Translations under genes and position numbers: made by a program
In this document: in pieces, positions 6,505-59,052 of the stretch
Layout: every line of letters starts with the position of its first letter
Numbering within the stretch: position 1 is the stretch's first letter
The notes under the pieces: model-generated
The model's input: the letters and a program-made list of their open reading frames with translations, nothing else
Database searches by the model: none
What the model was told of the DNA's origin: nothing
From: Pachysolen tannophilus NRRL Y-2460
Lineage: Eukaryota
Assembly: GCA_001661245.1 (NCBI GenBank)
Contig: KV454014.1
Coordinates: forward strand, 1,084,892 to 1,148,891
Length of the DNA: 64,000 nucleotides
Reading direction: 5' to 3'

Positions 6505-7791
6505 TTAAACCTTGGTTGAATTTATACAATTTTGTTCAATTTTCCATCTCACCACTTTATCGATGGCTTCAGCAACGTATTTAACATTTTGTTCGTTTAA
6601 ACCTGAAATAGACATTCTACCGTTTCTAAGCATATATATGGCATAATTAGTTTCTAATTTTTCAACTTCATCTGAAGATAATCCAGTAAATGAAAACATA
6701 CCTTTTTGGTTTGTTATATGATCCCAATTTCCTGGAGTTTTCAAATGAATTAATTCTTTCTTTAATAAGAATCTCATTTTAGAGATTCTCTTGGACATGA
6801 TAGATAAATCGGATTCCCATTGTTTTAATAAATTATTATTGGTTAATATTGTTGCAATTATTTTTGCTCCATAACCTGGAGGATTTGAATATTCTGTTCT
6901 TATAATTCTTTCCAATTGAGATTGTATTGCTTGATTTAATAAATGATTAGAATCTTTATGAATAATATGTAAACATCCAATTCTTTCTGAATATAATCCA
7001 AAATTTTTAGCAAATGATTGACAAACTAAAAATGACATTTGAGGGAAAAATTCACAAATAATTTTGAAAACTATTGAATCCATTTTAAATGAACCTGAAC
7101 AAAAACCTTGATATGCTGTATCAAATATAGGTAAATGATTTTTTTCATATAATTCTTTTAATATTTGAATCCATTGTTCATATGTTGGATCTACTCCAGT
7201 TGGATTATGTCCACATGTATGTAATAAAAAAATTGAAGGAGATGGTGCAGATTTAATACAATTGATAAATCCATTAATATCTAAATTTTTTTCTTTATTA
7301 TTCCAATAAGGATAATTTAATATTTTAAAATCTTGGAAAATTTGTTTATGATTCCCCCAACTTGGTGATGAAATATAAATATTATTACCATTAAAAAATT
7401 TTTTTAAAAAAATATTTGCAATATGAAGTGATCCAGTACCAGATAATGTTTGAATTGAAACTAATTTCCCCAAAATTTCTTTATAATTTTTATAATTTTC
7501 ATCTAATAGGATTTTAAATGATGATTTTAATAAATTTAAATCTCCTCTTATAGGTAAATATTCATGATCAAAATCTATCATCTTAAATAATTGAGTACTT
7601 GCGAGTTTAACACTTGGTAATATAAATGGTTTACCATATTCATCTCTATATGCACCAATACCAAGATCAACTTTTAATTTTCTAGTATCTTTTAAATACC
7701 TTTGCTTTAAATCAAATACCAGATCAGGTGCAAGTTTAGGAATACTCTTGAATAATGTACCAGTAGATATAAACCTCTTCTTCATAACCAT
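6505..7791 (-). CDS. Aspartate aminotransferase, cytosolic (Aat2-like) type with a short basic N-terminal extension
   Basis: VDLGIGAYRD, QTLSGTG, HNPTGVDP, DTAYQGF, PLP-lysine SFAKNFGLYSER, GMFSFTGL. Start moved to the first ATG at 7791; the upstream part of the listed ORF begins at GTG and is low-complexity. Confidence 0.9.
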   Translation of the reverse strand: MVMKKRFISTGTLFKSIPKLAPDLVFDLKQRYLKDTRKLKVDLGIGAYRDEYGKPFILPSVKLASTQLFKMIDFDHEYLPIRGDLNLLKSSFKILLDENYKNYKEILGKLVSIQTLSGTGSLHIANIFLKKFFNGNNIYISSPSWGNHKQIFQDFKILNYPYWNNKEKNLDINGFINCIKSAPSPSIFLLHTCGHNPTGVDPTYEQWIQILKELYEKNHLPIFDTAYQGFCSGSFKMDSIVFKIICEFFPQMSFLVCQSFAKNFGLYSERIGCLHIIHKDSNHLLNQAIQSQLERIIRTEYSNPPGYGAKIIATILTNNNLLKQWESDLSIMSKRISKMRFLLKKELIHLKTPGNWDHITNQKGMFSFTGLSSDEVEKLETNYAIYMLRNGRMSISGLNEQNVKYVAEAIDKVVRWKIEQNCINSTKV

Positions 7792-8607
7792 TTTTAACAA
7801 CAACAACAAAAAAGAAAAAGAAAAAGAAAAAAAGATTATCACAAACTGATAAATCTTATCTTTTGTACCTCTCCACTTATTCACTAAGTCACTTATTCGC
7901 TAAGTCACTTATTCACTAACTAATTCAAATCTAATAGTCCATCTGGTAATTATCACATCAATAATAGTGGAGTTGTTGCTGGTTTCGATGTTCGATCAAT
8001 CTTTTTGTCAAAAGATTTAAAGCAACCTTTTCCCCTCAATTGCTCTTTTTGGAGTCTAAACATAAGTTGAACTAGAAATCATCTAACTTACAAAGAAAAG
8101 AAAAGCTAAAAAGAAGCTCATTAACATCCAATTCTCCAATACCAAGACAAAACAAGATCAGAAGATCAAAAGAATAGTCTATAGACAGATAAGCATTTGT
8201 TAAAATTCTACAAAGAAATTGAAAACGTGAAGAAAATCTTACTTTTTTTAAAAGACTTTTTTTATTTTATTACCAATTCCCAAAACTTTACAATTTACAC
8301 AATTTAATTTCACTCTATTAATACCAAATAACTTATAACTGACCAACAATAGAGTGCTTCCAATTAAACCAGATTCTTTTTCTTTTACTCTTTTTTTAGC
8401 AATATTAATAATTCAGATGATGATCATCGTTTAAATTGAAGAAAATAGTGGTAAACTCCGAAAAGGTGCAAAAAATGCAATGAAAAATGAAAAAACCAAA
8501 AAAAAAAAATTTCAATGAAAAGTTAACTTTTAAAAAATTTTTCATCAACCGAACCCGAGTATTTATGATTCTGATTATAGGTAGGTAAGACCTCTTATTG
8601 TTAGGAC

Positions 8608-9561
8608 ATGTCAGGAATTAAAGTGTTCAGGAGTGTTAAAGATGTTCGGGAGTATAGGTTGCAATGTACTTTGAGAGGTGAAAGTGTGGGATTTGTGCCC
8701 ACTATGGGAGCTTTACATGAGGGACATTGTTCATTGATCAAAGAGTCATTAAATAATAATGATGTGACAATAGTATCGATTTTTGTTAACCCTTCACAGT
8801 TTTCACCTACTGAAGATTTGGATGCTTATCCAAGGACTTTGGACTGTGACTTGGAGTTACTTTCAGTTTTGAAAAATGATCGTGATGAAGAAGAGAATTC
8901 TTCTAGAAAGGTTAATGCGGTCTTTGTACCAACTGTTAGTGAGATGTATCCCTCTGGTATTTCTTTAGATGTTAATGAACAGAAAGGTGCGTTTGTATCT
9001 GTGTTAGGGGTAAGTGGTCAGTTGGAAGGTAGAATGAGACCTCAATTTTTCAGAGGTGTAGCTACTGTTGTTACAAAATTATTCAACGTTATAACTCCAA
9101 CAAAAGCTTATTTTGGACAAAAAGATATTCAACAAACGGTAGTGGTTAAAAATTTGGTTAAAGATTTGTTGTTACCAATTGAAATTGTTGTTCTACCAAC
9201 TATTAGAGAAAAATCTGGCTTGGCATTATCTTCAAGAAATTCTTACTTGTCTGAAAATGCAAGAGATGATGCTGCAATAATATATAAAGCTTTACACTTA
9301 CTGGAATTGGAATACTATAATAATAATGAAGTAACCGATTCTTTAGAATTATTGAAAATTATAGATAACGTGTTGAAAGATTATACAGATGGTACCAAGG
9401 GTAACTATGATATTGATTACGTATCCATAAATCACCCAAAGACCTTAGATACCTTGGACAAAATTACTCCAGGTGTTGGTGCTATCATAAGCACAGCCAT
9501 TAAAGTTCCAAATGGTCATGGTGACTTTACAAGGTTGATTGATAACGTCGTTTTGAAATAA
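8608..9561 (+). CDS. PAN6: Pantoate--beta-alanine ligase (pantothenate synthetase)
   Basis: GFVPTMGALHEGH, SIFVNPSQF, FGQKD, GLALSSRN, RLIDN motifs. Confidence 0.97.
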   Translation: MSGIKVFRSVKDVREYRLQCTLRGESVGFVPTMGALHEGHCSLIKESLNNNDVTIVSIFVNPSQFSPTEDLDAYPRTLDCDLELLSVLKNDRDEEENSSRKVNAVFVPTVSEMYPSGISLDVNEQKGAFVSVLGVSGQLEGRMRPQFFRGVATVVTKLFNVITPTKAYFGQKDIQQTVVVKNLVKDLLLPIEIVVLPTIREKSGLALSSRNSYLSENARDDAAIIYKALHLLELEYYNNNEVTDSLELLKIIDNVLKDYTDGTKGNYDIDYVSINHPKTLDTLDKITPGVGAIISTAIKVPNGHGDFTRLIDNVVLK

Positions 9562-58017: not shown

Positions 58018-58113
58018 TCAAATTTAAATTATATTTTAGAGATTTATATATGTAAATATTGGTATCTATTTTTTTTTTTTTTTTTGTTTTTGAGTTTTTG
58101 AGTTTTTGCGTTT

Positions 58114-59052
58114 TTAAGGATTATTCAATCTTTTATAACAAGCTACAAACTTACTACCATTATTTCTTGTAACTTTCTTACCTTCTTCAGTAGAATTCAA
58201 CATGATTTTAACACATTCATCTTGACTTTCCCAATTTTTATCTAATCTTTCAAATAAAGGATGTTCTTCTAGATGTTTGACCATCCATTCATGCAAATCT
58301 AATACATCAGTAATAGTATAAATGATTCCACCTTCTTTTAATACATATGCATATTCACTTAATAAACTATTTGTTATAATTCTTGCTTTATGTTTTCTAT
58401 TTTTAAAATGAGGATCTGGGAAACAAAAAAAAATTTTTGATAATTGTGATTTTTGGAAAAAATTTGGTAAAAATTTCATTGCATTTCCTCTTATTACATT
58501 TATATTTTGATATTTTTTGAAAAAATCTTTATTATTTATATGTTGTTGTCTTAATGCTATAATACGATCTTCAACATAATTTGTAACTTGTACTCTAATT
58601 TCCATACCTAATATTAATGTTTCTGGGAACAGTGGTGATAAATCTATTAAAAGTCCACCAAATCCACATCCAATATCTGCAATTTCTACTTTTTTATTCA
58701 ATTTACCAGTTTCTTGATTCACAAATCCAGGATAAAAACTTTCCCAATCCATAGCATATGGAGATTTAGGATATTCCAATTGATGATCTGAAAAAGGATT
58801 AGAATGAGCTCTTTGCCTATAAAACCTTTTCCTTGGTAAATCCAAATTTTTTTCCATTATCTCTTTAGTAATTTCTTCTGGTAAAGTTTCTGGAGTATCA
58901 AATCTTGCATGCTTTAAAAATTTTCTCTTTTCTTCCTTTTCTGCTCTATATAATTTCCTCTTTACAGAATCTGGGATTTTTTTATTTTCTTTAATCATTT
59001 GATCCATTTGATCTACTTGATCCTCATTTGCCGAAATTATAGGTTCAGACAT
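58114..59052 (-). CDS. TRM8: tRNA (guanine-N7)-methyltransferase catalytic subunit
   Basis: [49 protein letters not shown]. Confidence 0.97.

Follow-up and report, generated by a model that had tools for sequence, protein, structure and literature searches.

The 64,000-nucleotide stretch of contig KV454014.1 analysed here (the window) is budding-yeast nuclear DNA with 30% G+C and 26 long open reading frames (ORFs). It almost certainly belongs, at species level, to Pachysolen tannophilus, a yeast in which CUG is read as alanine by a tRNA-Ala with the anticodon CAG, a code known as NCBI table 26. This decoding is supported by a codon-wise test on homolog alignments, by an alanine-type tRNA(CAG) gene and by the species match; the incorporation of alanine itself is taken from the literature. 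A sequence-only reading of the window had proposed it, with the caveat that it would not be new if the source lay in a known clade. The caveat applies: the source is P. tannophilus, within the known CUG-Ala clade, and so CUG = Ala here is already known.

The tabulation of alignment columns suggested in that reading was carried out for four window proteins (Erb1, Prp16 and two old yellow enzymes, OYEs) and for midasin (Mdn1), encoded elsewhere in the same genome assembly (G000). Each was aligned to 117–150 homologs, and eleven control codons were masked together with CTG. Well-aligned codons numbered 5,114 of 7,736. CTG was usable at 24 of its 43 sites (7 in window genes and 17 in midasin, two being the same OYE column), the other 19 being dropped because a clean alignment was available for under half of their homologs. 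The code by which many of the homolog proteins were translated is unknown, which may have added slightly to false leucine. The standard meaning was recovered for 60 of the 61 sense codons. CTG is the sole exception, and alanine scores best for it (+3.6 nats, against −9.5 for Glu, −12.0 for Lys, −15.0 for Ser and −31.2 for Leu). In 10,000 bootstraps alanine was chosen 8317 times, Glu 854, Gln 425, Lys 209, Val 176, Ser 8 and Leu never. From the alignments alone alanine is thus the best residue for CTG with moderate support (83%). At Mdn1 residue 1302, 116 of 119 sequences have alanine; Erb1 alone is uninformative, its five CTG codons standing in gappy or Glu-led columns.

Were the code standard, CTG would be leucine read through wobble by tRNA-Leu(UAG), and the alanine-like sites would have been hand-picked. 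The gene for that tRNA exists (locus L082), 3 of the 24 CTG columns are led by leucine, and single homologs (1edz, AQP3, METTL1 and cytosolic aminotransferases) have leucine at CTG positions. However, mean leucine frequency is 0.05 at CTG columns but 0.57–0.74 at the five other leucine codons, and none of 10,000 draws of 24 leucine-codon sites reached the observed Ala-minus-Leu score, nor did any draw from equally masked CTA, CTC and CTT sites. CTG also lacks the hydrophobic neighbours of leucine codons at ±3 residues (−0.93, against −0.12 to −0.43), and a cognate alanine-type CAG tRNA is present. Refuted by the alignment test together with published mass spectrometry (PMC4937558), a standard code has next to no chance of being right. 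Serine, the meaning of CUG in the Candida (Ser1) and Saccharomycopsis/Ascoidea (Ser2) clades, is found at Gyp1 residue 528 in four homologs and is placed above alanine by the neighbour-context test described below. Against this, its alignment score lies far under that of alanine, and again 0 of 10,000 draws, here of serine codons, reached the observed Ala-minus-Ser score. As no leucine or serine draw reaches the observed scores, both residues are excluded for CTG.

The tRNA evidence bears on the same choice. The search for a tRNA(CAG) with the G3:U70 pair, also suggested in the sequence-only reading, gave a single pattern match, a 72-nt gene on the minus strand at G000:C6:217831-217902 that is single-copy by DNA search of the assembly. 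It has 5′ GGGC, G3:U70, G37 and A73; its variable loop is short, and it has no long variable arm. Alanyl-tRNA synthetase recognises G3:U70 in the acceptor stem and disregards the anticodon, and this tRNA would therefore be charged with alanine. Among the 27 nuclear anticodon types seen, the CAG tRNA shares G3:U70 with Ala(AGC) and Ala(UGC) alone, which are also the tRNAs nearest to it (31 and 30 of 40 arm positions). Folding gave no signal over shuffled sequences (z −0.59), so the cloverleaf rests on ARAGORN. In the Rfam search of the assembly 63 of 1003 candidates were scored, and the CAG tRNA was not among them. The four serine tRNA types seen all have G73. No leucine- or serine-type CAG tRNA was found among Rfam matches, among matches to leucine/serine D-arm patterns (18 and 9) or by a direct pattern (0) in these non-exhaustive searches of a 197-contig assembly, which did give Leu UAA, CAA, AAG and UAG and the four serine types. 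Serine is refuted by the tRNA anatomy and the codon-wise test alike, and we give it hardly any credence. The sole nuclear tRNA-Leu(UAG) found, at L082:4913-5049 (G000:C8 about 422116-422249, minus strand), measures 137 nt by ARAGORN and has an intron of about 50 nt; it would have to read CUA yet not CUG.

The species match comes from a public protein, P0122, labelled Pachysolen tannophilus, which the assembly encodes at 100% identity. A second so labelled, P0391, differs from the assembly solely at 28 CTG codons and at the first two positions. For this yeast, liquid chromatography–tandem mass spectrometry is reported to have given alanine at 97.2% of the 907 CUG positions with full support, with CUG as unambiguous as AUG, and the alanine-type tRNA(CAG) was published in the same work (Muhlhausen et al. 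2016, PMC4937558). A literature search found no treatment of P. tannophilus with Codetta.

In the literature the origin of the code is given as loss of tRNA-Leu(CAG) and capture of CUG by a mutated tRNA-Ala. By this route the ancestral tRNA-Leu(CAG) would have gone, and a tRNA-Ala whose anticodon became CAG would have begun to read CUG. No one-step synonymous path leads from GCN to CTG, for which reason CTG would have been gained non-synonymously at tolerant sites. Most CTG codons presumably arose at tolerant surface or low-complexity sites by a single non-synonymous change from CAG, CTA/TTG, GTG or CCG. Alanines that began at tolerant, neutral sites would be weakly conserved, and the Val-, Pro- and Gln-led CTG columns present in midasin fit such an origin.

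A number of results weigh against alanine and are taken together here. In the alignments a residue other than alanine, mostly Glu or Gln, was chosen in 17% of bootstraps, and the CTG set scored lower for alanine than every one of 10,000 draws of 24 GCN sites. Alanine leads only 6 of 24 CTG columns but 193 of 266 GCN columns, and the mean frequency of the top residue is 0.45 at the former and 0.74 at the latter. In a homology-free test of neighbour context (176 ORFs, 101,617 codons, 529 CTG) Gln ranked first and alanine scored below both leucine and serine; with low-complexity sites removed Gln was still first and alanine 17th of 20, the neighbours of CTG resembling those of Gln, Glu and Lys. 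The similarity of the CAG tRNA to alanine tRNAs has a thin margin, with Leu(CAA) and a Gln tRNA at 29 of 40 positions. Public records have alanine at all 37 CTG codons compared in window proteins and midasin (5 of 5 in P0001, 3 of 3 in P0121, 1 of 1 in P0124 and 28 of 28 in P0391), but this is an annotation choice and no independent proof. Leucine also stands opposite CTG in individual homologs. It is found at the methylene-tetrahydrofolate (THF) dehydrogenase site (16635) in the sole homolog, 1edz, and at the aquaglyceroporin site (43721) in AQP3, with Val in AQP7, both distant homologs. At two sites where the sequence-only reading had cited alanine in Saccharomyces cerevisiae, alanine is indeed present in some structures, 1yaa and 6jpk for the aminotransferase (7720) and 2vdu/2vdv for Trm8 (58630), but leucine in others, 3wzf, 6dnd and 6dna for the first and METTL1 7u20 for the second. 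The entries 3wzf, 6dnd and 6dna are cytosolic vertebrate-type aminotransferases.

The remaining sites put forward from orthologs are likewise mixed. Pantothenate synthetase (9301) has Gly in 9b2q and Ala in 2ejc, 2x3f and 3ag5; the S. cerevisiae Pan6 alanine said to stand there was not among the alignments. For Prp16 (11151), where S. cerevisiae alanine had also been cited, 130 motif-matched homologs (of 150) have Val 58, Ala 30, Ile 22 and Leu 1, the S. cerevisiae residue not being displayed, and 5yzg has Ser. At Gyp1 (13465), for which alanine or serine had been claimed, the four homologs compared (1fkm, 2g77, 6d0s and 2qfz) all have serine and none has alanine. The one counter-example that had been offered, the OYE codon at 26378, falls away. 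Its column is a gap in 51 of 117 homologs, Ala in 31, Lys in 8 and Leu in 3, alanine being the commonest residue of a variable-loop column, and three paralogs in the genome have Ala, Leu and Ser there. The sugar transporter site (57073) has Ala 28, Leu 20 and Met 18 among 70 metagenome loci, and the CTG sites of uL10m are gapped or have Asn or Val. With leucine or serine in other homologs at several sites, an argument from single orthologs is weak, and the quoted sites point away from Leu and often to a small residue, but not to Ala throughout. Two further arguments came from composition. The 160-residue tail of the 33.6 kb gene has 22 GCN alanines, and its only Leu-box codons are, as had been stated, the 3 CTG. 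The (CAG)3(CTG)5 run at 31970-31993 is present; but it is a low-complexity, self-complementary repeat of trinucleotides with CTA directly after it and cannot tell Ala from Leu, and its use as evidence for alanine fails.

The low alanine lead at CTG columns probably reflects the rise of these codons at neutral sites. In each of its runs the context test ranked the correct residue at the top for 8 of the 14 control codons, and with success so limited it is read as showing where CTG arises and not what it means. Low-complexity context accounts for 14.7% of CTG and 14.9% of CAG but 8–10% of GCN and 5–8% of leucine codons, and CTG is often found within polyQ or (CAA CTG)n repeats.

The same poor conservation (0.45 as against 0.74 at GCN) might be explained otherwise, by a CUG that is mostly alanine with a real leucine share, from mischarging linked to A35/G37, from wobble by tRNA-Leu(UAG) or from an unseen second CAG tRNA, selection having cleared CTG from important sites. 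The CAG tRNA has G37, a base tied to leucine mischarging in Candida (PMC5951914), and the tRNA searches were non-exhaustive. However, the tRNA has no long variable arm of the leucine kind, mutational isolation and a single-copy tRNA suffice for poor conservation, and in the published mass spectrometry CUG is unambiguous like AUG (PMC4937558). We consider this explanation very improbable. Only a small chance is given to a form of it in which the leucine share would be condition-dependent, arising from mischarging linked to G37 or from wobble by the long-intron tRNA-Leu(UAG), with CTG confined to Gln/Glu/Lys-like surface and low-complexity sites. Alanine as the one meaning of CUG remains by far the preferred reading.

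CTG is in frame at all nine positions quoted by the sequence-only reading: 9301, 33940, 33973 and 34057 on the plus strand and 7720, 11151, 13465, 31970 and 58630 on the minus strand (CAG on plus). The 26 long ORFs contain 67 CTG, with at least one in 22 of them, and the intron-containing gene at 33.6 kb adds three. Standard-code translation gives 70 wrong residues, spread over 23 of the 27 genes examined, and the earlier statement that many translations change holds. Erb1 (1025..3487, plus) has CTG at 1196, 1202, 1244, 1916 and 2756, all alanine in P0001. The sites discussed above lie in aspartate aminotransferase (6505-7791, minus; 7720..7722, residue 24), pantothenate synthetase (8608-9561, plus; 9301..9303, residue 232), Prp16 (9645-12986, minus; 11151..11153, residue 612), Gyp1 (13243-15048, minus; 13465..13467, residue 528), methylene-THF dehydrogenase (15927-16880, plus; 16635..16637, residue 237), aquaglyceroporin (42839-43828, plus; 43721..43723, residue 295), the sugar transporter (56113-58017, plus; 57073..57075, residue 321) and Trm8 (58114-59052, minus; 58630..58632, residue 141). 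The (CTG)5 run is part of an 808-codon ORF on the minus strand (30008-32434) with 17 CTG.

Genes without any CTG are at 3862-5559, 34801-36615, 45167-46273 and 54730-55311, and presumably include a phosphoglucomutase-like and a glutamine-synthetase-like ORF. Their lack of CTG, beside the 17 in the low-complexity 808-codon ORF, is consistent with avoidance of a codon that depends on one tRNA gene.

The two OYE genes are tandem paralogs (24648-27409, minus strand) with 59% identity and a common CTG at residue 146. In paralog b (24648-25928) it is at 25491..25493, with alanine in 50 of 107 aligned homologs, and in paralog a (26156-27409) at 26972..26974, with alanine in 35 of 67; the second CTG of paralog a, residue 344 in the variable loop, is at 26378..26380. 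The genome has six OYE-like loci. The gene at 33568-34410 (plus) has a start near 33568 and a first exon that closes at a GTAAGT donor near 33607. Its N-terminal part is short and hydrophobic and is followed by the long Ala/Glu/Lys/Ser-rich tail (33928..34410) with CTG at 33940, 33973 and 34057. Pfam gave no family for this tail or for the 808-codon ORF. A 94-nt tRNA gene at 27634-27727 (minus; L053) is tRNA-Arg(TCT) by ARAGORN without introns and tRNA-Lys(CTT) with introns. A 246-codon ORF at 41674-42414 was rejected as an artefact spanning a 425-base N gap (41938-42362) flanked by poly-A/T.

The mitochondrial contig (G000:C10, 28,450 bases) was also looked at. The usual anticodon of a mitochondrial CUN-box tRNA is UAG. 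Here the sole one found (L185:1987-2059; 73 nt, long variable arm absent) has AAG; no yeast report of such a tRNA was found in a literature search that was not thorough. CUN usage in 4,018 codons (CTT 24, CTA 3, CTC 0, CTG 0) resembles that of the CGN box (CGT 14, CGG 1), whose tRNA is tRNA-Arg(ACG). In the remaining four-codon boxes, by contrast, codons ending in A and codons ending in T are both frequent. In the first exon of cox1 (L183:7584-8504) all six CTT stand opposite leucine in the closest Cox1 structure, from which mitochondrial CUU = Leu, as in table 4. In table 3, CUN is threonine. P. tannophilus is listed under table 3 in PMC9154068, and for CUN this listing looks wrong. Both cox2 (L182:9146-9890) and nad5 (L185:2349-4276) are split over two frames in the assembly, and these splits look like single-base frameshift errors.

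The nuclear code is identical to that published for P. tannophilus, and the CAG tRNA agrees with the published one in its described features (GGGC, G3:U70, A73, G37, no extended variable loop; PMC4937558). That paper, however, puts CUG 'mainly at conserved alanine positions', whereas 6 of 24 columns are Ala-led in the five genes here. Pachysolen CUG codons are also described as keeping off highly conserved leucine positions (PMC4986446). The code extends to Nakazawaea and Peterozyma (PMC5951914) and is given as a diagnostic character of the order Alaninales (PMC11182611); CUG = Ala and a tRNA-Ala-derived tRNA(CAG) are shared, and no difference was found in the available parts of these sources. 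Like the CUG-Ser1 (Candida) and CUG-Ser2 (Ascoideales) codes, that of P. tannophilus uses an anticodon-shifted tRNA whose synthetase disregards the anticodon; but theirs is a serine tRNA(CAG) whose variable arm is long, whereas here the tRNA is alanine-type and CTG keeps off serine columns. Stochastic decoding of the Ascoidea asiatica type involves two competing CAG tRNAs of different identity; one CAG tRNA was found here in an incomplete census.

For work with the window genes, miscoded translations affect homology calls and expression in standard-code hosts. Were CUG partly ambiguous after all, Pachysolen would become the third lineage of yeasts to have a statistical proteome. With CUG read as alanine, the biology is that of the founding case of this sense-codon reassignment, which was described in 2016 and today serves to define a yeast order. 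Of possible specialist interest is that the CTG alanines act as mostly neutral, recently gained sites and not as conserved alanines.

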